Shown: piece after piece, positions 8,033 through 56,348 of the stretch
How positions within the stretch are numbered: the stretch's first letter is position 1
Layout of the letters: every line of letters begins with the position of its first letter
Assembly: GCA_964637575.1 (NCBI GenBank)
Contig: CAZWVU010000002.1
Span: 82,824 to 146,823 of the forward strand
DNA: 64,000 nucleotides
Source of the DNA: an uncultured Candidatus Saccharibacteria bacterium
Lineage (GTDB): Bacteria > Patescibacteriota > Minisyncoccia > UBA6257 > WO2-44-18
Direction: 5' to 3'
Position numbers and translations under genes: made by a program
Notes under the pieces: model-generated
What the model saw: the letters and a program-made list of their open reading frames with translations, nothing else
What the model was told of the DNA's origin: nothing
Databases searched by the model: none

Positions 8033-8275
8033 TTAGCCCGGTTTTTGAAACGACCGCTTCTCTTCCAGCGACTGGCGCAGCCGATCCAGATTGATCAGGT
8101 GTTTTTGCCAGGCCTTGCCGTGCGGATTTACCGTCTCGCCGCCACCGACACAGAAAAAGACTGCCTTGCATCGTTCGCACCCCATGAGATCCCCGTTGCC
8201 CGTCTTCCGGTCGCCCCACGCCACGAACACTAGCTGATACCCGCACTCGCTGCAGTAAATCATAGCGCTCTCCAA
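8033..8275 (-). CDS. Small zinc-ribbon protein (two CxxC pairs), heads the copper operon
   Basis: CSECGY ... CERCKA gives a 4-Cys zinc ribbon; the rest of the protein is a short basic tail. Confidence 0.4.
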   Translation of the reverse strand: MESAMIYCSECGYQLVFVAWGDRKTGNGDLMGCERCKAVFFCVGGGETVNPHGKAWQKHLINLDRLRQSLEEKRSFQKPG

Positions 8276-8317
8276 TTTGCTGGATTTATAGTAGCAAAAA
8301 TGGTTAAATATTCATAT

Positions 8318-8388
8318 TCCGAGGTCGTCTAATGGTAGGACAGCAGCCTTTGGAGCTGTGAATCGGGGTTCGATTCCCTGCCTCGGAA
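8318..8388 (+). tRNA. tRNA-Gln (anticodon TTG)
   Basis: Manual cloverleaf: acceptor TCCGAGG/CCTCGGA, anticodon stem GCAGC/GCTGT with loop CTTTGGA, T-arm GGGGTTCGATTCCC. CCA is not encoded. Confidence 0.85.
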
Positions 8389-8400
8389 CAAAAATAAAAT

Positions 8401-8430
8401 ACCCACGCTCATCGTGGGTATTTTATTTTT
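8401..8430 (+). terminator. Intrinsic terminator after tRNA-Gln
   Basis: Hairpin ACCCACG-CTCAT-CGTGGGT followed by ATTTTATTTTT. Confidence 0.6.
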
Positions 8431-8567
8431 CGTTACTTAGATAGTGGGAATCGAAGACCGCAGCGCCGGCCGCCAGCAGGCGGACAAGCGAGGGGCGGGC
8501 TGCGAGAAATTTCCTGCAGGAAATTTACTTGTAGCCGATTCCACCTGTTATTTGTTAAAATTCTCTG

Positions 8568-10469: not shown

Positions 10470-10539
10470 GCGAAGTCTTCTGTTCTTCCCGCAGACAGGA
10501 TTGTAGCCCGACGTCCTGTCGAGGAGAAGAACAGAAGAC
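10470..10539 (+). repeat. Hairpin repeat element copy A: conserved 37-nt core CCGCAGACAGGATTGTAGCCCGACGTCCTGTCGAGGA inside a 14-bp outer stem
   Basis: Identical over 70 nt to the inverted copy at 11950-12019. The same core also occurs at 55537-55601 with different but self-complementary outer stems. Confidence 0.8.
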
Positions 10540-10599: not shown

Positions 10600-11934
10600 A
10601 TGAATAAAGAGGAATCGCAGAACGTCAGTTTTACCTCTCTTGGTATCGCTCCGGCGCTCTTAGAAACATTAACCCGCCTCAAATACGTCACCCCTACGCC
10701 GATTCAGGCGCAGGCAATTCCGGTTGCCGTAACCGGAAAAGATGTGGTCGGGATCGCCCAAACCGGCACCGGCAAGACGCTCGCCTTCGGTATTCCGATG
10801 ATCCAGCGCCTCTCCCAGATCAAGGGAAAAGGCCTGATCGTGTTGCCTACCCGCGAACTCGCCGACCAGGTGGAGGAAACAATCAAAAAGATCGGCAACA
10901 ACCACGTCCGCACCGCGCTTCTGATCGGCGGCGCTTCGATGTTTGCCCAGAAGCAGGCTATTATGCGCGATCCGCATATCGTCATCGCCACCCCGGGCCG
11001 CCTCATCGATCATATGGAACAGCGCAATATCAGCCTTGGTAAAGTGGAGATTCTGGTGCTTGATGAAGCCGACCGTATGTTTGACATGGGATTCGCCCCG
11101 CAACTCCGCAAGATCATGGACGCCATTCCGAAAGAACGCCAGACCATGCTTTTCTCCGCGACGATGCCGCCGGAGATCATGAAGATTGCGAGCGGCCACA
11201 TGAAACTCCCCGTCCGCGTGGAAGTCGCCCCCGCCGGCACGACTGCCGACCGCGTCACCCAGGAAATTTTCATGGTGCGCAAGGAGGAGAAGAACCGCCT
11301 CGTCGAAAAATTACTCACCCAATATCCGGTGACCACGCTGATCTTTACCCGCACGAAATTCGGCGCGAAGCGCCTGGCCCGCACCATCCGCGATATGGGA
11401 TCCACCGCCGCCGAACTCCACTCCGACCGTTCGCTCGGCCAGCGCCGCGAAGCGCTGGATGGTTTCAAGACCGGCAAGTATCGCGTCCTTGTCGCGACCG
11501 ATATCGCCGCGCGCGGCATCGACGTTACCGGCATCGGCCTCGTCCTTAACTATGATCTTCCGATGAACACCTCCGACTACGTGCACCGCATCGGCCGCAC
11601 GGCCCGCGCCGGCGCCGGAGGCCATGCCATTTCCTTTGTGGCGCCCGAACAGCGCGGCGAAGTGCGCGAGATCGAACGCCTCATCAAGAAGAGTCTGCCG
11701 CTTTCCAAGATGCCTACGGATCTTCCGCCTGCCCGCGTACAGGAGCGTCCCCAGTATTTTGAAGAAGAACGCCCCCGTTTCGGCCGCGGACGCCGTCCAG
11801 GTTTTGGTTCCCGTCCGTCCCGTCCCGGTTTCGGATCGCGCCCTTCATTTGGCAGCCGTCCGCATGGCCCGCGTCCCGCCGGATCTTCCGATGGCCGCTC
11901 CTCATTCCCCCGCCGGCGTTTCCGCCGCGGCTAA
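10600..11934 (+). CDS. DEAD-box ATP-dependent RNA helicase with C-terminal RG/RGG-rich tail
   Basis: Q-motif region, AQTGTGKT (motif I), PTRELA, DEAD, SAT and HRIGRTARAG are all present. The C-terminal 80 aa are rich in RGRRPGFGSRPSRPGFGSRP. Confidence 0.95.
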   Translation: MNKEESQNVSFTSLGIAPALLETLTRLKYVTPTPIQAQAIPVAVTGKDVVGIAQTGTGKTLAFGIPMIQRLSQIKGKGLIVLPTRELADQVEETIKKIGNNHVRTALLIGGASMFAQKQAIMRDPHIVIATPGRLIDHMEQRNISLGKVEILVLDEADRMFDMGFAPQLRKIMDAIPKERQTMLFSATMPPEIMKIASGHMKLPVRVEVAPAGTTADRVTQEIFMVRKEEKNRLVEKLLTQYPVTTLIFTRTKFGAKRLARTIRDMGSTAAELHSDRSLGQRREALDGFKTGKYRVLVATDIAARGIDVTGIGLVLNYDLPMNTSDYVHRIGRTARAGAGGHAISFVAPEQRGEVREIERLIKKSLPLSKMPTDLPPARVQERPQYFEEERPRFGRGRRPGFGSRPSRPGFGSRPSFGSRPHGPRPAGSSDGRSSFPRRRFRRG

Positions 11935-11949
11935 GGACTGGCTTGTCTT

Positions 11950-12019
11950 GTCTTCTGTTCTTCTCCTCGACAGGACGTCGGGCTACAATCCTGTCTGCGG
12001 GAAGAACAGAAGACTTCGC
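11950..12019 (-). repeat. Hairpin repeat element copy B (inverted orientation), immediately 3' of the helicase stop
   Basis: Reverse complement is identical to copy A over 70 nt. It is followed by TTCGCTTTTATTTT, so it may act as the helicase terminator. Confidence 0.8.
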
Positions 12020-23301: not shown

Positions 23302-25641
23302 TTAAAGCTTGTTTAACAATGGTATGGCCGCCCGCAGATCGGCCCGCGCGTTCCGCATCGGCGACCAGACATCGCCAAGCTTTTTGATCCGCGCCGGCAT
23401 GGTGCGAATGTTGAATCTTCCCGGATTAAGGCGGGCGGTCACCTCCGTCCAGCGTAAAGGAGCTGATGCGAGCGCGCCCGGAACAGGCCGGAGACTGTAC
23501 GGCGCCGCCTGGGTTTTCTCGCGGCTGTTTTGAAGGTAGTCTATATACACTTTTTTCTGCCGGTGTTTTGGCAGACGCTCAAGACTAGTAAAATCCCTGG
23601 TGTTCGCGTGCACAATCGTCGCGACCAGTTCCGCGAAATCACCGGATTCTTCGAACGTATACCGGGCGCCCAGGGGTATATATATGTGGATTCCCCGCTT
23701 TCCGGAGGTCTTCGGAAAATGCGGAACGCCGGCGGCCTCCAAAACGCTGTGAATGGCCCGCGCCGTTTTTACCACGAAGGAAAAATCGATATCCTCCGGG
23801 TCGAGATCCAGAATGCAGTAATCCGGCCGGTCCAGACTTCCCACGCGCGAACTCCACGGGTTGATTTCAATGCACCCAAGATTCACCATGTACAGCACTG
23901 AATCGATGCCGTCGCACACCAGATATTCGACCGTCTTTTGATTGCTCTTCGAATACACGGACACGGTCTTGATCCAATCCGGCGCGATCGGCCCCACATT
24001 CTTATGATAGAAATGCATTCCGTTGATACCTTCGGGAAAACGGTTCAACGATTGCGGCCGGTTCAGTACATACGGAAGCAGCACCCCGCTTACCGCGCGG
24101 TAATAATCCGCGACGTCGCCTTTGGTGTATCCTTCCTCCGGCCAGAAAATCTTGTCGGCGTGATGAATGATAAATTCGGGACTGTTTTTTACCGGCGTTT
24201 CCCTGACCACTTTTTTGGGATCCTTATCTTCACGAAGGCCCACGAAGATCGGCTGGCGCATATGTCCTGTTTCTGTCCATTCCCGGAAGGTGATCTCGGC
24301 CACCAGCTTCGGAGTAAGCCAATGAACCGGCGCGTTTGTTTTCGGCGGATTCCCGAAGGGGGATTTTTTTGTTTCGAGCGGCGCCAGCCGCCTGCGCAAA
24401 AGTTCCAAATTCCCGAGCTTCCCTCCCGTGTGCCCGACATAGCGCAGCGTGCCGTCCCGGTCGTATACGCCCAGCACAAGGGCGCCGAGAAATTTCCGGC
24501 CGCCGCGGGGTTCCGTGAATCCCGCGATTACCGCTTCCTGCCGCGGATGGGTTTTGATTTTCAGCCATTCCCGGCTCCGCACTCCCGTCAGATATGCGCT
24601 CGCCCCGTTTTTCGCAATGATTCCTTCAAGGCCGGCCTTTTCCGCTCCCCGGAAAAGCTCCTTTCCCGATTCCTCCACGTAGTCATTGAAAAAAATCGAG
24701 AGGGTCTTTCTGGGGATTACGTTCCGGAGAAGTTCCTTCCGCTCGGCGAGCGTTTTACGCCGCACGTCCTCCCCGTCCAGTTCGAGAATGTCGAATACGT
24801 AATAGCGGAGCGCGCCGTTCCCGCTTTTCAGATAATTCTGCAGTAACTGGAATGACGGCCGTCCCTGGGTATCAACTACCACGATCTCCCCGTCCAGCAC
24901 TGCTTCGAGGCGGAACGTTTCGAGCTCCCGGACGATCGGATCGAACTCGGCGGTGAAATTGCTGGCGCCGCTCCGCGAGTAGAGCGTGACGTGTTTATTC
25001 CTGCAGACCGCAACGGCCCGGAACCCGTCCCATTTCGGCTCGAAGATCCATCCCTTCCGGTTGAACGGCCCCTCTGCGAGCGAAGCCAGCATCGGCTTGA
25101 TGGGAAGCGAAAGCGACGGGGCCACCCGGGGCGCCCGGACGGCGGCCTCGTCGTGCTTCTTGATGAGCAGCCAGGTGTTTTTCCCGGCGCCCGCCATCCG
25201 CACCAGCGTGAAGGTTCCTTTCAATTTTTTTCCTTCAAGAAAGAAATCGATGTGGCCTTTTTTCAGACCGTTGAGCGCCGCAGCCTCGGTCTCCTTCGGA
25301 TCTTCGCCGCCGGGAAGATGATAGGTTCCCGAATCCCAGACGGAAACCAGTCCGGCTCCGTAGTTTCCCTCCGGGATGACGCCTTCGAACGTCCGGTATT
25401 CGAGCGGATGATCCTCGGTCATAACCGCCAGTCGCTTTTCATCAGGATCCCGCGAAGGACCTTTGGGCACCGCCCAGCTTTTCAAAACGCCGTCCATTTC
25501 CAGCCGCACATCATAGTGCACGCGCGACGCGTAATGCTTTTGCACCACGAAACGCAGCGGTCCGGCGCGGTGCGTCCGCCGGCCGGCCGGCTCGGGAGTT
25601 TTCGCGAACGCTCGCTTTCTCCGGTACTCCTTCAGCGCCAT
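23302..25641 (-). CDS. ligD: Multidomain ATP-dependent DNA ligase LigD (phosphoesterase-ligase-polymerase/primase order)
   Basis: PE domain HYDVRLEMDGVLKSWAVPKGPS, a ligase core with K-x-DG-type adenylation region (EPKWDGFRA), and a C-terminal primase-polymerase (LigD Pol) domain. The start is assigned to the ATG at 25641 (MALKEYRRKRAF). Confidence 0.9.
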   Translation of the reverse strand: MALKEYRRKRAFAKTPEPAGRRTHRAGPLRFVVQKHYASRVHYDVRLEMDGVLKSWAVPKGPSRDPDEKRLAVMTEDHPLEYRTFEGVIPEGNYGAGLVSVWDSGTYHLPGGEDPKETEAAALNGLKKGHIDFFLEGKKLKGTFTLVRMAGAGKNTWLLIKKHDEAAVRAPRVAPSLSLPIKPMLASLAEGPFNRKGWIFEPKWDGFRAVAVCRNKHVTLYSRSGASNFTAEFDPIVRELETFRLEAVLDGEIVVVDTQGRPSFQLLQNYLKSGNGALRYYVFDILELDGEDVRRKTLAERKELLRNVIPRKTLSIFFNDYVEESGKELFRGAEKAGLEGIIAKNGASAYLTGVRSREWLKIKTHPRQEAVIAGFTEPRGGRKFLGALVLGVYDRDGTLRYVGHTGGKLGNLELLRRRLAPLETKKSPFGNPPKTNAPVHWLTPKLVAEITFREWTETGHMRQPIFVGLREDKDPKKVVRETPVKNSPEFIIHHADKIFWPEEGYTKGDVADYYRAVSGVLLPYVLNRPQSLNRFPEGINGMHFYHKNVGPIAPDWIKTVSVYSKSNQKTVEYLVCDGIDSVLYMVNLGCIEINPWSSRVGSLDRPDYCILDLDPEDIDFSFVVKTARAIHSVLEAAGVPHFPKTSGKRGIHIYIPLGARYTFEESGDFAELVATIVHANTRDFTSLERLPKHRQKKVYIDYLQNSREKTQAAPYSLRPVPGALASAPLRWTEVTARLNPGRFNIRTMPARIKKLGDVWSPMRNARADLRAAIPLLNKL

Positions 25642-25642
25642 A

Positions 25643-26416
25643 TTACGTGTTGACCCGCCGGCGTTCGATGCTGCGCCGCAGAAGTGCGGCAAGATCCTTG
25701 GCGTGGGTGGGTTTCGCCGGTCCCTCCTTGGCGGGCGGTTTTTGTCCGCGCGCTTTTCTCCTGATTACCTCGCGCAGTTCGGCAAGATACGTGTCTTTGA
25801 ATTCGCTGCCCCGGAAAGGCTTGCTAAGTTTCTGAATCAGCTGGGTAGCCATCTCAAGCTCCGCATTGCTTACCTGCTCCTTTTTCGGCAGATTGAGTTT
25901 GCTTGCCGGCTCAACTTCTTCCGCGTAGCGCATCTGGTTCAATACGAGCGCCTTGCCTTCCGCGGTTAACGCGCCGAGATGCTGCCGGTTGCGGATGACG
26001 AAGGTGGCGATTCCCACCGTTCCCGTTTTTCTGAGCGCTTCCTGGAAAAGGACGTAGGCCTTTTCGGCTCCTTTCTCCGGCTCGATATAATATGGTTTTT
26101 CGAAATATTTCGGATCGATTTCCTTGAGTTTGGAAAAGCTGTGAAGGGTGATGGCGCTCGTTTTTTTCGGGTTCGCGTTTTTGAAATCCTCATCGGTGAG
26201 CACGATGTACCGGTTTCCGTATTTGAAACCCTTCACGATATCTTCGTAAGGAACTTCCTTTTGCTCATCTTTACAGACGCGGGCGTATAGGATCGGCGAA
26301 AGGTCGGCGCGGTGCAGCATATCCAGATCCAGTTTTTCTTCCGGAGACGCGCTATAGAGCCGAACAGGGATGTTCACCAATCCGAAGCTTATTGATCCTG
26401 ACCATAGCGATCTCAT
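25643..26416 (-). CDS. ku: Ku protein (NHEJ)
   Basis: Canonical Ku N-terminus MRSLWSGSISFGLVNIPVRLYSA. The gene abuts LigD. Confidence 0.95.
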   Translation of the reverse strand: MRSLWSGSISFGLVNIPVRLYSASPEEKLDLDMLHRADLSPILYARVCKDEQKEVPYEDIVKGFKYGNRYIVLTDEDFKNANPKKTSAITLHSFSKLKEIDPKYFEKPYYIEPEKGAEKAYVLFQEALRKTGTVGIATFVIRNRQHLGALTAEGKALVLNQMRYAEEVEPASKLNLPKKEQVSNAELEMATQLIQKLSKPFRGSEFKDTYLAELREVIRRKARGQKPPAKEGPAKPTHAKDLAALLRRSIERRRVNT

Positions 26417-45359: not shown

Positions 45360-47054
45360 ATGATAAATAAAAAAAATATCGGACTGACGCTGGGAATGGG
45401 TATGATGGTCGCGGCCGCCATTCTCACCCTCCACACGGCGCGCGCAGATGCCGCCAACCTGATCAGTAACCCGTCGGTGGAAACGGGATCATCAAGTAAT
45501 CCGCTTATGCCGCAGAGCTGGTTCAAGGGCGGTTACGGATCGAATACCCGCACCCTCACCTATCCTGTTCCGGGATACGATGGCGCCAGGGCGGTCAGGG
45601 TGGATATCAGCGGATACACCGATGGCGATGCGAAATGGTATTTCAATTATGTCCCCGTAAATCCCGGGGACAATTATTTTTTCTCGGACAATTTCCTCTC
45701 CAACACGACTTCCTATCTTACGGTCCAGTTTAAGAAAACCGACGGAACATTCCGCTATCTGAGCCTCGGATCCCTTCCGGCCGACGGAAGCTGGCAGTTC
45801 ATCCAGAAAAATTTCGTGGTTCCCTCAAACGTCACAGGCCTTACCATATTCCACGCGCTCCGCGGCGATGGGTATCTGGTAAGCGACAACTATGTTTTGA
45901 AAAAAATAATTTCCCCGGCCGCCGATCCCAATAATCTTATCAGCAATCCTTCGATGGAACTTCCCTCCTCCGCCGATCCGAATATTCCCAAAAACTGGCT
46001 GCAGGGCGGCTATGGGTCAAACACACGCATCTTCACGTATCCCGTTGCCGGCAACGACGGCTGGAGCGGCGCCAAGGTGGAAATTACCAGTCATGACGAC
46101 GGCGACGCCAAGTGGTATTTCAATCCCGTAGCCGCCAGCTCCGGCGACAGCTTCGAATATTCCGATTACTCGATCGGCAGTATTCCCAACGACGTGACCG
46201 CCCGGTTCACCCTGAAAAACGGCGCCTTCCAGTATCAATATCTCGGCACGGTACCCGCCGCCACCAGCTGGACAAAGTTCGACACCACCCTCACCGCCCC
46301 GGCCAACACCGCCGCGCTTACCGTCTTTCATAATATTGACGACGTCGGCACATTGAAAACCGATTCCTACTATCTGAAAAAACTTCCTTCCAATAAATTC
46401 GCGCAGGGAATGGTCACGCTGACCTTCGACGACGGTTACCAGAGCGTGTACGACAACGCGATTCCTATTCTCCGGAAAGCCGGGATCAAAAGCAGCCACT
46501 ATATCGTCAGCACCTACACGGATTACACGGGATTCATGAACCTGCAGGAGATCGCCGAACTCAACAAATCAGGCTATGAAATCGGCTCGCACACCCGGAC
46601 GCATCCCTACCTTACCCAGCTTTCCGACACCGACGCCTGGAATGAAATTTCCGGAGGTAAATCCGATATAACCGGATTCGGATTTACCCCGAACAGCGTC
46701 TTCGTGTATCCCTTCGGCGATTATGATGACCGGATCAAGCAGATGGTGAAGAAGGCGGGATTCATCGCGGCGCGCAGCACGATCGACGGATTCAATTTCA
46801 AGAACACCGATAAATTCGAGCTTCAGGACGAGCGGGTGCTCCGCACGACGACCGTCAGCCAGGTCCAATCCTGGATCGACCAGGCGCTGGCCGATCATTC
46901 CTGGCTGATTATTGAGCTTCATCAGACACTCGATTCCAGCAACGACCTCTACAGCAATAATGTGGCAATGATCCAGGCAATCGCCGATTATATTACCAAA
47001 ACAGGAATCAAAGTGATCAGTGTCCCCGAAGGAGTGGCGATGATGAATCCTTAA
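45360..47054 (+). CDS. Secreted polysaccharide deacetylase (CE4) with two tandem N-terminal CBM-like beta-sandwich repeats
   Basis: Signal peptide. Two repeats of about 170 aa follow (NLISNPS ... GGYGSNTR ... DGDAKWYFN). A NodB domain comes after them (TFDDGYQSVY, GSHTRTHP). Confidence 0.75.
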   Translation: MINKKNIGLTLGMGMMVAAAILTLHTARADAANLISNPSVETGSSSNPLMPQSWFKGGYGSNTRTLTYPVPGYDGARAVRVDISGYTDGDAKWYFNYVPVNPGDNYFFSDNFLSNTTSYLTVQFKKTDGTFRYLSLGSLPADGSWQFIQKNFVVPSNVTGLTIFHALRGDGYLVSDNYVLKKIISPAADPNNLISNPSMELPSSADPNIPKNWLQGGYGSNTRIFTYPVAGNDGWSGAKVEITSHDDGDAKWYFNPVAASSGDSFEYSDYSIGSIPNDVTARFTLKNGAFQYQYLGTVPAATSWTKFDTTLTAPANTAALTVFHNIDDVGTLKTDSYYLKKLPSNKFAQGMVTLTFDDGYQSVYDNAIPILRKAGIKSSHYIVSTYTDYTGFMNLQEIAELNKSGYEIGSHTRTHPYLTQLSDTDAWNEISGGKSDITGFGFTPNSVFVYPFGDYDDRIKQMVKKAGFIAARSTIDGFNFKNTDKFELQDERVLRTTTVSQVQSWIDQALADHSWLIIELHQTLDSSNDLYSNNVAMIQAIADYITKTGIKVISVPEGVAMMNP

Positions 47055-51250: not shown

Positions 51251-51280
51251 TAAAAAAAGCCCCGACACAACGTCGGGGCT
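51251..51280 (-). terminator. Intrinsic terminator for the ligase gene
   Basis: AGCCCCGAC-ACAAC-GTCGGGGCT followed by a T-run on the minus strand. It shares the GCCCCGACAC stem with the terminator at 50475. Confidence 0.6.
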
Positions 51281-52262
51281 AGTCAATCGGATACTTGCGC
51301 GGCGCCCGGCAGTCGCGGATGTTCTTGTCATGCCGGAATCGCACGAACCGCGCGCCCTGAAGCTTACCGCTGTCAAAACGATAATCGTATTCGAGCTGGA
51401 TCACCAACGGATATCTCGCTTTGCGGAGCCATTCGCGCGTTTTGTTATCAAACGCGCCGAACTTGCCGCAGTCAAACTCGTTCCGATCCAACGTGCCGTT
51501 GAACTGCGAGAGTGTGACTTCTTTCACCCGGTCTTTGTTGCTCGGATCCATGATCGGATGCCGCACGATGAAATCGTCTTCGTGGACGGGCTTCCATTTG
51601 TAACAGCCACGGATCCTTTGCGGACTTTTCCCATCCAGGCGGAACGCCGACAGAAACTCGGCGTCGTAGAGCACAAGGCCTTCCCAGCCCTTTTGTTTCA
51701 CCAGGCGTTTGGCCAGCGTGAAGTTGTTGTGCACAACCTCAACAGGCTCAACATAATCACGGCAATATACTTCCAATCCGCACCCGAACGCTGTTCGAAG
51801 CGTGGCGTGCCGGGAAGCATATCTCCATTCGCCGATGACCTGTTTGCCGCCCCAAAAGACAATATCAAACAGCCGGTAATGCACCATGCCGATTCTTTTC
51901 TGCTTCTCCAATGCCTGATCATCCTTTGAGCAGAAAATGCTCTGGATGCGCTCGAGTTTGTCGCCGGATAACGCATCGGGCACTACCGCTTCGCCGGCAA
52001 GCACCGTGTCGTCCGGCACATTCCGGGAAGCCAGGTCGCGGGCAATATGGCCGAGGAATGTAACATTCCGGATGCCATCGGTATACAGCTTCCATCCACC
52101 CATTGCCTTGACCGCAAACAACTTCCAGCCATTCCGTTTGCGCGTAATGACCAGCCGGCTGTCTTTTTCAAGCCGGAAGATTTCTTCCTCGGTGTAATTT
52201 TCCTGGCTTACCGGCTTGGCAAGGATGAATCCCTTCGGCAGCGGATCAAACGAGAACCGCAC
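51279..52262 (-). CDS. Minimal ATP-dependent DNA ligase-family nucleotidyltransferase (LigC/phage-like) with K-x-N-G variant of motif I
   Basis: TRKRNGWKL (Lys adenylation site), EGLVLYD (motif IV) and CYKWKP (motif V, KxK) are present. 327 aa with no extra domains. Confidence 0.6.
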   Translation of the reverse strand: MRFSFDPLPKGFILAKPVSQENYTEEEIFRLEKDSRLVITRKRNGWKLFAVKAMGGWKLYTDGIRNVTFLGHIARDLASRNVPDDTVLAGEAVVPDALSGDKLERIQSIFCSKDDQALEKQKRIGMVHYRLFDIVFWGGKQVIGEWRYASRHATLRTAFGCGLEVYCRDYVEPVEVVHNNFTLAKRLVKQKGWEGLVLYDAEFLSAFRLDGKSPQRIRGCYKWKPVHEDDFIVRHPIMDPSNKDRVKEVTLSQFNGTLDRNEFDCGKFGAFDNKTREWLRKARYPLVIQLEYDYRFDSGKLQGARFVRFRHDKNIRDCRAPRKYPID

Positions 52263-52322: not shown

Positions 52323-53021
52323 ATGTCCAAAGTGTACGTGGTGACGCCCACTTACAATGAACGCGGCAATCTTCCAATTTTAGTGGAAAAAATTTTCGCG
52401 CTGAAAATTCCGGAATTGCGTATGGTGATCGTGGACGACAACTCCCCCGACGGCACAGGTGCGCTCGCCGAAGAACTGGCGCGCGCGCATCCAATCTCCG
52501 TTCTCCACCGCGCCGGTAAACAGGGCCTCGGCACTGCGTATGTCGCCGGTTTCAAGCACACTCTCGCTGAAAAACCCGATTTCATAATCCAGATGGACGC
52601 CGATCTTTCTCATGATCCGACGACAATCCCGGTGATGCTCGAAAAAATGCAAGAGAGCGATCTCGTCCTCGGCTCCCGATATATTCCCGGCGGGCGCACG
52701 GAGAACTGGGATTTCTTCCGGAAAATGGTCAGCCGCTTCGGGAATTTCTACGCCCGGACGATTCTCGGACTTCCTTACCGCGATCTCACCGGAGGCTTCA
52801 AATGTTTCCGCCGCGAAGTGCTGGAAAAAATAAATTTAGACTCGCTAAGTTCGGTCGGTTACAACTTTCAGATCGAGACCACCTACCGTGCCCATCAAAG
52901 TGGTTTTACAATCGCCGAAGTGCCGATCGTCTTCCGTGAACGGAAAACCGGCCAATCCAAATTCAACCTGAAGATCATGCTGGAAAGTTTCTGGAGAGTG
53001 CTTCTGCTCCGTTTCAAATGA
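52323..53021 (+). CDS. Polyprenol-phosphate mannose/glucose synthase (Dpm1-like GT2)
   Basis: VVTPTYNERGNL ... VDDNSPDGT ... DADLSHDP is the classic Dpm1/GtrB signature. The start is assigned to the ATG at 52323. Confidence 0.9.
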   Translation: MSKVYVVTPTYNERGNLPILVEKIFALKIPELRMVIVDDNSPDGTGALAEELARAHPISVLHRAGKQGLGTAYVAGFKHTLAEKPDFIIQMDADLSHDPTTIPVMLEKMQESDLVLGSRYIPGGRTENWDFFRKMVSRFGNFYARTILGLPYRDLTGGFKCFRREVLEKINLDSLSSVGYNFQIETTYRAHQSGFTIAEVPIVFRERKTGQSKFNLKIMLESFWRVLLLRFK

Positions 53022-54724
53022 AATCATCCTCCAAATATCTTCTCGCGATCCTGGCGGCCGCCGCCATTCTCCGCGTGATCAACCTCGGCTCCGGCGATCT
53101 GGTCGGCAATGACGAGGTACTCTACGCCTTCCGCTCCGTGGGAATAACGGACTTCGTGAATTCCCCCGCCCAGACCACGCCACCCGTCTGGTTTGACGGC
53201 CACGTTCCCGGCTGGGCCGGCCTCTCCATGCACGACCATCCCCTCCTCGTATTTATCGTCCAGCATATTTTCATGGGGATCTTCGGCGAAAACAACTTCG
53301 GCTTCCGCTTCCCCTCCGCCGTCTTCGGCGTGCTGTCGGTATATCTCGTCTACCTCATTTCAAAAAAGTTATTTTCGGAACGCGCCGGCCTGATCAGCGC
53401 CGCGTTGATGGCGCTCACGGTCAATAACGTCTACATTTCCCGCCTGGGCCTGCAGGAATCGTATCTGATCTTTTTTATCCTGCTGACGTCCTGGCTGTTT
53501 CTGAACGCGCTGGAACGCCCGAAGTATTTCCTCTGGACCGGCGCTGCATTCGGGTTTACGTTGCTTACAAAATATAACGGCGCCGTCGTCGCGCCTGTCA
53601 TACTCACCTATCTCCTGCTCTTCCGACGCGATGTATTCAGACAAAAATATTTCTGGCTCGGCGGCCTGCTCGCCGCGTGTATTGCCAGCCCGATTCTGAT
53701 CTACAACATCGGCATGTACCGCGCGACCGGACATTTTGATTTCCAGATATCCTATCTTCTCGGCCAGCATCCTGCTATCTGGCAATCCGCGCCGGGCAAA
53801 GAAGTAGTCGGTTCATTCGGCGACCGCCTCCGCGCGTTCATTCCGAATCTGATCGCGTCCAATTCTCCCCTGCTCATGCTGCTCTTCGCGCTGACCATTC
53901 CGTTTTTCATCCGGGAGATCGCCAGGAACCGCGCGGCGCTCCGGCGAAAGGCATTTCTGGATATTTCCTTCGTCTGGATCATTCTCTTACTGCTCTTCAT
54001 CGGCCCAACTTTCCGGTTCCTTACCCTGCTCACGCCATTCATCGTGATGAAGGTCGGCCTGTTTTTGGATGACGCCTTTCCCAAACGCCGGCATCTTCTG
54101 GCGGCATTCCTCGCAGCTTTCCTGATCTTTGAATGTCTGTACTCCCTGAACAGCGTCGTCACGAATTACCCGGCCGGACCGGAGGGTTGGGCTTTCTCCC
54201 ATCTGCGCTATGAAAACTTTCACTGGGGCTACAACGAACTGGAGGACTACTTTTCCAAAGAGTTGGCGGGAAAATATCCATTGCTGACATTCGATCTTCA
54301 ATATCAGTTTCTGGAAAAACAGAAAGAGGCCGGCGTCGCCGCCGCGAAAGCTGCCGGAGCCACGCCCTATCCCGCGCTGCTGGTATATGACGAAAACATC
54401 CACAGCGGCCCCCAGCTTTGGACGTTTGACCGCCGCCAGATTTATCATGGCTGGCCGGTAATGACCGCGGGAGATTATCTGAAGCTGATATCCGAAAAGG
54501 GACCGCGCGCGCTCGAAAATTCCGGCATACAAGTAATCTACTTTGCCTTTCCCACGGACGCAGTCGCCCTGAAAGCCACCGGCCAGCTTACCAGTCATGG
54601 CAAGACGCTGGAACCTCTCGTCGCCTCTCAAAAGGACGCGTTTTTCATTCCCGTCAAAAACGGATTAGGGCAGGACGCCTTTCATATATATAGGCTGAGC
54701 TTCATCCGGCTTGTGGATAATTAG
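53018..54724 (+). CDS. GT-C fold glycosyltransferase, PMT/ArnT family (polyprenol-phosphate-sugar dependent)
   Basis: About 12 TM helices with a first loop carrying GNDEVLYAF, the DE motif. It overlaps the Dpm1-like gene by 4 nt. Confidence 0.75.
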   Translation: MKSSSKYLLAILAAAAILRVINLGSGDLVGNDEVLYAFRSVGITDFVNSPAQTTPPVWFDGHVPGWAGLSMHDHPLLVFIVQHIFMGIFGENNFGFRFPSAVFGVLSVYLVYLISKKLFSERAGLISAALMALTVNNVYISRLGLQESYLIFFILLTSWLFLNALERPKYFLWTGAAFGFTLLTKYNGAVVAPVILTYLLLFRRDVFRQKYFWLGGLLAACIASPILIYNIGMYRATGHFDFQISYLLGQHPAIWQSAPGKEVVGSFGDRLRAFIPNLIASNSPLLMLLFALTIPFFIREIARNRAALRRKAFLDISFVWIILLLLFIGPTFRFLTLLTPFIVMKVGLFLDDAFPKRRHLLAAFLAAFLIFECLYSLNSVVTNYPAGPEGWAFSHLRYENFHWGYNELEDYFSKELAGKYPLLTFDLQYQFLEKQKEAGVAAAKAAGATPYPALLVYDENIHSGPQLWTFDRRQIYHGWPVMTAGDYLKLISEKGPRALENSGIQVIYFAFPTDAVALKATGQLTSHGKTLEPLVASQKDAFFIPVKNGLGQDAFHIYRLSFIRLVDN

Positions 54725-54817
54725 GAGCGCCACTCCCGCCAAAATGCTATAATGAACCTTGTTATCTTTTATCCGCTATCTGGCGGAGAGAAAGGTCGAA
54801 AATAGTCGAATATACAC

Positions 54818-55216
54818 ATGAATCCAAAGAAATTTCTCCAAATCGGTGGCGCAGTCCTCGTATTAGTAGGGATCCTTGGTTTCGTCGGCGTCCTCGGGCC
54901 GACTGCCGAACAGTCAATTTTCGGCAGCAGCTGGTGGTTTGATGGCGGCGAAAACTGGGCTCATCTGATCCTGGGCGTAGTCGGTCTCATCGCTTCTTTT
55001 GCGCTGGGAGCCGGATATCAGCGCGTCCTGGTTCGGTTGTTGGGTTGGATCGGCATCCTGGTAGGGCTGTACAGTCTGTTCATCAGCAACAGCTTCCTCG
55101 GCGCCAATCTTGAGAACCCGATGGACACGCTTCTTCATCTGGCAGTCGGTGTGTGGGCGCTTCTTGCCGCGAAAGGCAGCAAGGCTCCCGCTCCCGCCCC
55201 GATGATGCAGCAATAG
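54818..55216 (+). CDS. Small polytopic membrane protein, hypothetical
   Basis: Four hydrophobic helices. Confidence 0.4.
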   Translation: MNPKKFLQIGGAVLVLVGILGFVGVLGPTAEQSIFGSSWWFDGGENWAHLILGVVGLIASFALGAGYQRVLVRLLGWIGILVGLYSLFISNSFLGANLENPMDTLLHLAVGVWALLAAKGSKAPAPAPMMQQ

Positions 55217-55222
55217 TCTAGT

Positions 55223-55487
55223 CCAGGGAATTTACATTAGCTCTTCCCGCGTTGTGAGGCAAAATGTTCCGACTCGCGAAGTCGAGCCAGTGTGAGCTGT
55301 AGACTCTACTGCCACACTGGGAGACGAGCGAGCGGACATTTTGACCACAACCCTTCGGGACACGCGAATTTTACTGCAGCGCTGTGTGATTCGGACTTGA
55401 AGTAGAGTCTACATCTGCGTCCTCACCACTTCGCGCTGACAGATAAAATTCGCGGTGTCGCGGGGGAGATTAATGTAAATTTCCTGG
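55223..55487. mobile_element. MITE-like nested-palindrome element (about 265 bp) with 18-bp terminal inverted repeats CCAGGGAATTTACATTAG / ATTAATGTAAATTTCCTGG
   Basis: Terminal inverted repeats lie at 55223-55240 and 55469-55487. Inner inverted repeats GTAGACTCTAC (55299) / GTAGAGTCTAC (55403) are present, and there is no ORF. Confidence 0.4.
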
Positions 55488-55495
55488 ACCACATA

Positions 55496-55527
55496 AAAAT
55501 CGCCCTGTGAGGGGGCGGTTTTTATTT
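55496..55527 (+). terminator. Intrinsic terminator
   Basis: CGCCC-TGTGAGG-GGGCG followed by GTTTTTATTT. Confidence 0.5.
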
Positions 55528-55536
55528 ACTAATGAA

Positions 55537-55601
55537 GCTCCGCCTCCTTCCCGCAGACAGGATTGTAGCCCGACGTCCTGGCGAGGAGAAGGAGGCGGAG
55601 C
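55537..55601 (+). repeat. Hairpin repeat element copy C (same 37-nt core, one substitution; different but complementary outer stem CTCCGCCTCCTTC / GAAGGAGGCGGAG)
   Basis: The core CCGCAGACAGGATTGTAGCCCGACGTCCTGGCGAGGA is shared with copies A and B. Outer stem sequences differ yet remain perfectly complementary. Confidence 0.75.
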
Positions 55602-55610
55602 TGTGGTAAT

Positions 55611-56348
55611 ATGGAGGGTATGAAAAAAAGCACCTCCTGGGGCGGAGAATCCGTCGTCGGGCATTACCAGCAGCATGTGATCCTTCCGAACCTCACCCGC
55701 CTGATCGCGCCAAAAAAAGGCGAGTTGATTGTTGATCTCGGCTGCGGCGAAGGTTTTTTTGCAAAGAAATTTGCCCACGACGGCGCGCAGGTCATCGGCT
55801 TCGACGTCTCGAAAGAGCTGATCGAAAAAGCGAAAGAAACCGCCGGGAAAAATGAAGAATACCATGTCGGCTCCGCCGAGCGGCTTCCCCTGCTCAAAAA
55901 CAGCGCTGCCGACAAAATTACCATCATTCTTGCCATTCAGAATATGGATAATGCCCACGCCGTGCTCAAAGAGTGCCATCGTATCCTGAAGCCGGGCGGC
56001 AGGCTTTACATCGTGATGAACCACCCGGCCTTCCGCGTGCCGAAAGCGAGCGACTGGGTTTGGGATGAAGCCAATCAGATCCAGTACCGCCGCGTGGATT
56101 CTTATTTGAGCGAGTCCAAAGCGAAGATCGAAATGCATCCCGGCGAAAAAAACAGCGAGTACACCATTTCCTTCCACCGGCCGCTCCAGCTCTATTTCAA
56201 ACTGCTCAAAAACGCCGGATTCTGCGTGACGAACTTGGAGGAATGGATTTCCGACAAAAAAAGCGAGCCGGGACCGCGCGCGGAAGCTGAAAACCGCACC
56301 CGGAAAGAAATTCCGCTTTTTCTTTTTCTGGAGGCAAATAAGGTATAA
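55611..56348 (+). CDS. Class I SAM-dependent methyltransferase
   Basis: SAM-binding motif I VDLGCGEGFF, with an acidic residue after beta-2 (GFDVS). Confidence 0.85.
   Translation: MEGMKKSTSWGGESVVGHYQQHVILPNLTRLIAPKKGELIVDLGCGEGFFAKKFAHDGAQVIGFDVSKELIEKAKETAGKNEEYHVGSAERLPLLKNSAADKITIILAIQNMDNAHAVLKECHRILKPGGRLYIVMNHPAFRVPKASDWVWDEANQIQYRRVDSYLSESKAKIEMHPGEKNSEYTISFHRPLQLYFKLLKNAGFCVTNLEEWISDKKSEPGPRAEAENRTRKEIPLFLFLEANKV

Follow-up and report, generated by a model that had tools for sequence, protein, structure and literature searches.

A 269-bp palindromic element bounded by inverted repeats between a DUF4383 stop codon and its terminator in a Parcubacteria lineage

The small genomes of CPR/Parcubacteria are commonly said to contain little mobile DNA. 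Among insertion sequences, members of the IS630/Tc1 family duplicate the dinucleotide TA at both ends, while members of the IS5 family duplicate 3–4 bp, such as CTAG/YTAR. Invertons are invertible promoters flanked by inverted repeats, and the ERIC, BOX, RUP and REP-BIME sequences are imperfect palindromes of transcribed intergenic or 3′ regions, whose stable RNA structures can stabilise the upstream mRNA. Families of intergenic palindromic repeats have been described in pneumococcus (PMC3049150). Prokaryotic MITEs (reviewed in PMC2229807) are shorter than 500 bp, carry terminal inverted repeats of 4–30 bp and have stable transcript structures, and the direct repeats that flank them decay with age (PMC10969869). 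Correia elements (CREE/NEMIS), which are restricted to Neisseria, are 100–155 bp long, exist in hundreds of copies, show a TA target duplication and contain an IHF site; RNase III binds their paired repeats or cuts them, and the fate of the adjacent mRNA is altered (PMC2649163). Our search of the literature retrieved no report on CPR MITEs or on Parcubacteria structured RNAs.

We have analyzed a 64-kb stretch of DNA (below, the window), in which an earlier note had described an intergenic MITE-like nested palindrome of 265 bp with 18-bp terminal inverted repeats. All sequence strings quoted in that note occur where it placed them. The terminal repeat is real but longer than described: GTCCAGGGAATTTACATTA (55221–55239) and TAATGTAAATTTCCTGGAC (55471–55489) are 95% complementary over 19 nt, with G55228·T55482 as the only mismatch, and they enclose an element of 269 bp (Table 1). 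In the predicted fold, the terminal repeat forms a 20-bp helix (55221–55240/55470–55489), and with the 7 bp added by 55242–55248/55463–55469, the closing stem, P1, reaches 27 bp (mean pair probability 0.87). The interior of the element consists of two independent hairpins of ~100 nt each, H1 and H2, set on a three-way junction at CCCTTCGGG. The element begins 4 nt past the stop codon of a DUF4383 gene and ends 3 nt ahead of an intrinsic terminator; this terminator and copy C of a hairpin repeat do follow the element, as had been noted. The observation that there is no ORF also stands, since the longest one has 43 aa and a GTG start and lacks support; a small ORF or toxin peptide was considered and rejected on the grounds that only ORFs of ≤43 aa with GTG starts, all of them without support, are available. 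Searches for tRNA/tmRNA (ARAGORN) and for tandem repeats returned nothing, and nothing distinctive was found in the composition of the element.

Table 1. Positions in the window of the 269-bp element, its parts and the features around it.
Feature	Positions	Strand	Basis or remark
Whole element, lineage-specific insertion as judged from relatives	55221–55489	+	269 bp; fold z −13.4 (RNA, +), −14.3 (RNA, −), −13.1 (DNA parameters)
P1 5′ arm: left terminal inverted repeat and 7-bp extension	55221–55248	+	Inverted-repeat search, fold
Hairpin H1, 40 bp	55251–55351	+	Minimum-free-energy helices; mean pair probability 0.98
H1 tip AGCTGTAGACTCTACT, complementary to H2 tip	55295–55310	+	Inverted repeat I3, 16 nt, 94%
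Geometric centre CCCTTCGGG	55352–55360	+	Read from sequence; optional C(UUCG)G mini-hairpin at junction
Hairpin H2, 41 bp	55356–55462	+	Minimum-free-energy helices; mean pair probability 0.84
H2 tip AGTAGAGTCTACATCT, complementary to H1 tip	55401–55416	+	Inverted repeat I3, 16 nt, 94%
P1 3′ arm: right terminal inverted repeat and extension	55463–55489	+	Inverted-repeat search, fold
Candidate extended −10 promoter box TGCTATAAT of the DUF4383 unit	54745–54753	+	Read from sequence
DUF4383 small membrane-protein gene, 132 aa	54818–55216	+	Pfam PF14325; 779 homologues
Bidirectional intrinsic terminator, ATAAAAATCGCCC-TGTGAGG-GGGCGGTTTTTAT	55493–55525	+	Inverted repeat I6, terminator scan
Hairpin-repeat copy C, a separate family outside the element	55536–55602	+	47 bp downstream of element

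The minimum free energy of the RNA (55215–55530, + strand) is −165.8 kcal/mol, compared with −94.5 ± 5.3 kcal/mol for dinucleotide shuffles, and the folds of the − strand RNA and of the DNA deviate from expectation as strongly (z-scores in Table 1). The self-pairing of the element is real and exceeds chance by a wide margin; from the fold by itself, neither the strand nor the kind of nucleic acid that matters can be read. On the + strand, the two non-Watson–Crick pairs of P1 are both G·U (on the − strand they would read A·C), and the internal loops of H1 consist of purines only (GAA/GA and GAG/GA); a C(UUCG)G mini-hairpin can also be drawn at the junction. In the fold model, these three features would weakly favour the + strand. 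The mini-hairpin is optional, since forcing it costs ~7 kcal/mol (−138.8 against −145.9 kcal/mol), and the overall G·U counts of the two strands, 4 and 2, do not discriminate between them.

Inverted pairs do exist inside the element, as the description of a nested palindrome implied, but in the dominant fold, H1 and H2 stand side by side rather than being held together by nested cross-pairs. The resulting Y has an energy of −146 kcal/mol, compared with −108 kcal/mol for a "rod" in which the left half is forced to pair with the right half. The global score of the left half against the right half is 21, where −16 ± 5 is expected; the terminal repeat and the hairpin tips account for the whole of this signal, and the idea of a "palindrome of a palindrome" was dropped, the four hairpin arms showing no relatedness to one another (z between −0.8 and 1.1). 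The pair GTAGACTCTAC / GTAGAGTCTAC, singled out in the earlier note, is real, extends to 16 nt at 94% (55295–55310/55401–55416) and makes up the tips of H1 and H2. The proposed pairing of CGCGTTGTGAGG with CCTCACCACTTCGCG is not used in the best fold, and CGACTCGCGAAGTCGAG (55271–55287), taken for the palindromic centre, sits in the 5′ arm of H1.

Between the tips of H1 and H2, 15 of 16 nt are complementary, with a local score of 27 against 13.8 ± 2.0 for shuffles. Since the energy of the tip-to-tip duplex (−22.6 kcal/mol) outweighs the cost of opening both tips (+9.6 kcal/mol), an intramolecular kissing contact between them would be energetically plausible. Simple transposon decay does not account for such a degree of tip complementarity in arms that are otherwise unrelated.

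The history of the locus was approached by comparison with the loci of DUF4383 orthologues that share 74–80% amino-acid identity with the window protein and are the closest available. DUF4383 homologues whose source is named come from Parcubacteria/CPR groups (Doudnabacteria, Sungbacteria, Liptonbacteria and Kerfeldbacteria) and assign the host organism to Parcubacteria/CPR, and the C-terminus and stop position of the protein are conserved in the relatives. The element is absent at the orthologous site in all informative relatives sampled (L004–L014, L023 and L025); the L024 contig ends 33 nt past the stop codon and is uninformative. In seven relatives, only ~23–47 nt lie between the stop codon and the terminator (47 nt in L004–L006). 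The order DUF4383, methyltransferase, RsmE, Cys/Met PLP enzyme is kept in four relatives (L007/L008, L012–L014 and L025, whose contig ends inside the third gene), and among these order-keeping loci, only L007/L008 have the PMT gene ahead of DUF4383. The gap between DUF4383 and the methyltransferase gene is 45–99 nt in the order-keeping relatives versus ~400 nt in the window.

The terminator loop TGTGAGG is common to six of the seven relatives, while the stems vary; in L023, the loop is degenerate. Since the terminator follows the stop codon in the relatives, it is ancestral and belongs to the DUF4383 gene. When positions 55221–55489 are removed, the window sequence reads TAG-TCTA|CACATAAAAATCGCCC-TGTGAGG, the 3′ side of which fits the ACAAAAA-stem pattern of the relatives, and the residual spacer is ~10 nt shorter than theirs. 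The limits of the added DNA are the ends of the inverted repeat. Because the relatives have so short a spacer at this site and because these limits match the inverted repeat, sequence comparison identifies the 269 bp as DNA that one Parcubacteria lineage gained by insertion downstream of the DUF4383 stop codon and ahead of the terminator. At this level of DUF4383 identity, the insertion event is undatable and intermediates are out of view.

In form, the insertion resembles prokaryotic MITEs. It is non-coding and intergenic, its length (269 bp) is below 500 bp, its inverted-repeat ends (19 nt at 95%) lie within the ~4–30 bp range, a stable stem-loop is predicted, and orthologous sites are empty in L004–L014, L023 and L025. 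Unlike MITEs, it has no direct repeats, no partner IS in the window and no family members in the collections searched, a single copy being detectable, and it is not AT-rich relative to its host; its G+C content (50%; window, 54.7%) does not mark it as foreign. No direct repeat of 2–12 nt was found in any register of the flanks (...AATAGTCTA | GTCCAGG...CCTGGAC | CACATAAAAA), the junctions reading ...TCTA|GTCC...GGAC|CACA.... Neither of the partners suggested in the earlier note fits these junctions. An IS630/Tc1-type partner is contradicted by the lack of a TA duplication (the left flank ends with TA, the right one begins with CA), and an IS5-type partner by the lack of a 3–4 bp duplication (on the left, TCCAGG comes after CTAG; on the right, CCTGGA is followed by CCAC). 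The inverted repeat matches no other site in the window, and Pfam searches revealed no transposase, integrase, recombinase or reverse-transcriptase domains in 46 window ORFs; a transposase with matching inverted-repeat ends was not found in the window. The interpretation given in the earlier note is supported in part. The empty sites in relatives, limits that match the repeat ends, the small size and the lack of coding capacity speak for an origin of mobile type, and the results on target duplication, copies and partner transposase speak against a MITE. With target duplication, copy number and partner IS all searched for in vain, the element is not fileable as a MITE.

Nor is it fileable as any known RNA family. 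A search of the whole window with Rfam 15 at gathering score yielded nothing except two tRNAs. At E<10, region 55100–55650 gave only weak matches, which have their centres at the terminator and copy C and span neither P1 nor H1 nor H2; the matches to DUF3800-I and RNAI start within the last ~45 nt of the element. A retron ncRNA (msr-msd) was also considered and rejected, as no reverse transcriptase is adjacent, the neighbours being PMT, DUF4383, class I methyltransferase, RsmE and PLP enzyme genes.

The element is present, in the same orientation and at 100% identity, in three Logan contigs from separate runs (SRR8931202, SRR8931230 and SRR8931234). Since it is identical in three independent assemblies, it is not an assembly artefact. 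These k=31 assemblies pass through the element unbranched, which means that no second copy sharing a 31-mer exists in those samples, and all three end at window position 55572, inside the 42-nt invariant core of the hairpin repeat. The check for additional copies that the earlier note had proposed turned up one copy in the 64-kb window, with no target-site duplication: dispersed copies of the MITE kind were not found there by a search with the repeat 17-mer allowing 3 mismatches (0.24 occurrences expected in the window at ≤3 mismatches), by blastn-short or by nhmmer, the latter run against the masked window and 34 loci. The case for a single copy is strong but not absolute, and it covers the 64-kb window and the three Logan samples.

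Wider searches gave the same picture. Distant BLAST against phages and plasmids produced no match. In IMG/VR (2.9 M viral contigs), the 17-mer retrieved 6 chance singletons and the paired hairpin-tip pattern 0 sequences; among 185,579 species genomes, the 19-mer was found in 2 chance singletons (a cyanobacterium and a Saprospiraceae genome). JGI metagenomes contained 9 singletons of the 19-mer, none of which extends beyond 19–23 nt, and 0 instances of the paired-repeat pattern. Look-ups with the downstream methyltransferase (starts 55611 and 55620) for contigs of the same organism gave no record.

The genes around the element, all on the + strand, encode glycosyltransferase 2, a PMT-type mannosyltransferase (53018–54724), DUF4383, a class I methyltransferase, RsmE and a Cys/Met PLP enzyme. 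Between the PMT gene and DUF4383, a gap of 93 nt contains the TGCTATAAT box, which is a plausible promoter of a monocistronic DUF4383 unit; the two-hexamer promoter scan made no call there. Since the element sits inside this transcription unit, its + strand should be transcribed if the DUF4383 gene is expressed, and transcripts of the − strand would be halted by the same bidirectional terminator before reaching the element. Further downstream, a −10-like box, TGGTAATAT (55604–55612), ends 7 nt ahead of the likely methyltransferase start at 55620, and the methyltransferase gene of L007 has the same arrangement of box and start. This suggests that the downstream methyltransferase operon may have its own promoter box and a leaderless mRNA.

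The explanation that we prefer, and to which we would give slightly less than an even chance, is that the element is an orphan: a palindromic insertion with inverted repeats at its ends, transcribed along with DUF4383 and forming a highly structured 3′ UTR. An unsampled small mobile element of MITE-like form may have left a solo or decayed copy here, or the palindromic insertion may have been a one-off event; in either case, the DNA would have entered a ~25-nt spacer between the DUF4383 stop codon and its intrinsic terminator. The transcript would then contain, starting from a promoter near 54745, the ORF, the 269-nt element and the terminator (55493–55525), and its 3′ part would adopt a Y shape with a 27-bp closing stem, two ~40-bp hairpins and a possible tip-to-tip contact. 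The consequence would probably be passive or modest; the bulky 3′-UTR structure could shield the 3′ end of the mRNA or offer a long double-stranded stem to RNase III. What the analysis shows is that the element exists, has an extreme potential for pairing, is an insertion, is single-copy within the data available and has no homologues in the collections searched; transcription, the RNA fold in vivo and any effect on the mRNA are inferred.

Correia elements provide the best analogy for such an effect. Like them, the element is enclosed by inverted repeats, is predicted to be co-transcribed with a neighbour gene and has a long double-stranded stem; unlike them, it is 269 bp long, is present in a single copy, contains two internal hairpins and shows no similarity to them in sequence. 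By this analogy, the 27-bp stem could protect or destabilise the 3′ end of the DUF4383 mRNA. Should the 269-nt structure alter stability or processing of this mRNA, it would represent a CPR counterpart of the post-transcriptional effects of Correia/ERIC type.

An unlikely reading is that the element is a functional, undescribed structured RNA, either embedded in the 3′ UTR or released from it by cleavage as an sRNA, which would have its Y locked by tip kissing and would have been acquired or have evolved in this lineage only. The long structured ncRNA of the earlier note agrees with the context, since the element occupies the interval between stop codon and terminator on the + strand, within a + strand transcription unit and directly before the terminator. 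The extreme stability of the fold, the + strand preference of the P1 G·U pairs, H1 purine-only loops and junction C(UUCG)G, and a tip complementarity far above shuffles despite unrelated arms, with duplex energy exceeding opening cost, are all in line with it. However, even with the threshold at E<10, Rfam offers no family for the element, the collections searched contain no diverged homologue (the other copies are 100% identical), and no relative carries the element at this locus. Moreover, the − strand and DNA folds are equally significant, the strands differ little in G·U pairs, and long helices with hardly a mismatch occur more typically in DNA palindromes than in evolved RNAs. Quite unlikely, too, is a reading in which the element is either a new Y-shaped Parcubacteria 3′-UTR RNA with 11–16-bp tip kissing or the founder copy of a CPR mobile element; in the latter variant, the CPR element would enter the spacer that separates a stop codon from its terminator and leave no target duplication. 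We likewise doubt that the palindrome arose locally, being neither mobile nor functional, through duplication or inversion of spacer and terminator sequence (by template switching or hairpin-mediated repair), with the inverted repeats as a by-product. Such an origin would agree with the distribution of CGCNNTGTGAGG, which is found only twice in the 64-kb window (0.11 occurrences expected): at 55248–55259, bridging the innermost part of the P1 5′ arm and the H1 base, and at 55501–55512, in the 5′ arm and loop of the terminator. A degenerate inverted copy of it is present at 55422–55436, segment 55440–55466 weakly resembles the run into the terminator (55490–55515; score 22 against 14 ± 2.2 for shuffles), and the base of H2 (CGCGAATTTTA / TAAAATTCGCG) is similar to the arms of the terminator; the lack of a target duplication and of another copy, the host-like G+C and the presence in the genome of Ku and LigD (end-joining) point in the same direction. 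Yet beyond this 12-mer, the element shares no significant similarity with its flanks, be it direct or inverted, the score of 22 falls within the range of shuffles (maximum 27), and ~200 nt (H1 and most of H2) have no detectable local source.

Two further explanations are an inverton and a cis-regulatory leader. As an inverton, the element would be a segment of 231 bp that a site-specific recombinase turns around between the 19-bp repeats. This matches the known geometry of such loci, with ~19-bp repeats around ~230 bp of intergenic DNA, and the second inverted pair (the hairpin tips, 55295–55310/55401–55416) is concentric with the terminal repeat. It is nevertheless very improbable: the promoter scan found no promoter-like site inside the segment, the terminator stands between the segment and the downstream operon, 46 window ORFs contain no recombinase domain, and four of four sequences (the window and the three Logan contigs) have one orientation at 100% identity; the interior, moreover, is structured into hairpins, which invertons do not need. 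Alternatively, the succession of a structured RNA, a terminator and genes of methyl/sulfur metabolism recalls SAM or T-box leaders, and the element could be seen as a cis-regulatory leader (riboswitch or attenuator) of the methyltransferase–RsmE–Cys/Met PLP enzyme operon, with 55493–55525 as the expression platform. This is hardly credible, and it is largely refuted by the fact that the terminator belongs to DUF4383 and is found ~23–47 nt past the stop codon in seven of seven leader-free relatives. In addition, no riboswitch or T-box matches at E<10, the downstream gene has an apparent −10 box of its own (TGGTAATAT) and a possibly leaderless start as in L007, and long perfect helices are unlike those of aptamers.

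In line with our preferred reading, the 269-bp element is not the only palindromic DNA at hand; the window contains three kinds of palindromic intergenic DNA: a three-copy hairpin repeat, the 269-bp element and a palindrome at 396–556. This suggests that palindromic insertions accumulate in at least some CPR/Parcubacteria lineages and end up inside transcripts. The hairpin repeat is 65 nt long and has an invariant 42-nt core in its 3 copies in the window, and the ERIC/BOX/RUP/REP-BIME category suits it much better than it does the 269-bp element. The latter is, like members of that category, an imperfect palindrome in a (predicted) transcribed 3′ region, but they form multi-copy consensus families, whereas the element has no consensus partner; as one orphan sequence, it is chiefly useful for pointing towards checks on reads and transcriptomes. 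An inverted pair at 45667/45901 lies inside a coding ORF and was dismissed as chance.

The palindrome at 396–556 is a second orphan nested palindrome (z −10.9), unrelated to the 269-bp element. It starts 6 nt past another stop codon and is absent after the orthologous gene in relatives, a position that hints at a possible preference of a putative CPR element for spacers between stop codon and terminator.

The terminator of the DUF4383 gene has counterparts just past the DUF4383 stop codon in the loci of relatives L004, L007, L009, L012, L023 and L025. Its 7-nt loop, TGTGAGG, is the same in six of the seven relatives, the loop of L023 being degenerate, while the stem varies in sequence among relatives with compensation. 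Such loop conservation is unusual for a terminator. It suggests that something recognises TGTGAGG.

The 12-mer CGCNNTGTGAGG occurs just twice in the 64-kb window (expected number, 0.11), once at the inner end of the closing stem of the 269-bp palindromic element (55248-55259) and once within the terminator (55501-55512). Local duplication may have left this pair behind.

Shortly 3' of the terminator lies copy C of a separate hairpin repeat, a true repeat family with three copies in the window. A 42-nt core, CTTCCCGCAGACAGGATTGTAGCCCGACGTCCTG[T/G]CGAGGAGAAG, is invariant in the family, whereas the outer arms of copies A and B and those of copy C are wholly different in sequence, with complementarity kept. 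Copies A and B (~85 nt each) are identical, inverted relative to each other and flank a DEAD-box helicase gene (10600-11934). All three Logan assemblies of the window's organism end within copy C. A search of IMG/VR with the 23-mer core of the repeat gave no matches.

The methyltransferase gene downstream probably starts at ATG 55620 rather than at 55611; the start at 55620 gives MKKSTSW, which matches the N-terminus of relatives. A TGGTAATAT box (55604-55622 region) ends 7 nt upstream of the methyltransferase start, and L007 (3442-3462) carries TACAAT at the same distance. This arrangement suggests that the methyltransferase mRNA is leaderless.

Features of the window, with coordinates and strands
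Feature	Window position	Strand	Remark
tRNA	8318-8388		in intergenic region 8247-8567
Perfect 18-bp hairpin	8390-8430		directly after the tRNA
Hairpin repeat, copy A	10475-10539	+
Hairpin repeat, copy B	11950-12014	-
Ku and full LigD	23302-26416	-	adjacent genes
Further ligase-like ORF	51279-52262
DUF4383 terminator	55493-55525
Hairpin repeat, copy C	55536-55602	+

The LigD protein comprises phosphoesterase, ligase and primase-polymerase domains. With Ku and this LigD, the CPR genome encodes the bacterial end-joining repair system in complete form. The intergenic region that houses the tRNA is strongly structured overall (z -7.1).

A second orphan nested palindrome, unrelated to the 269-bp element, occupies positions 396-556 and begins 6 nt past the stop codon (563) of a response-regulator gene on the - strand. 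In relatives that share 86% and 75% identity, no element of this type follows the orthologous stop codon, and a convergent gene lies 3-6 nt past it. The palindrome has no Rfam match; its predicted RNA fold (z -10.9) places two hairpins, one of them terminator-like, inside a 22-23-bp terminal stem.
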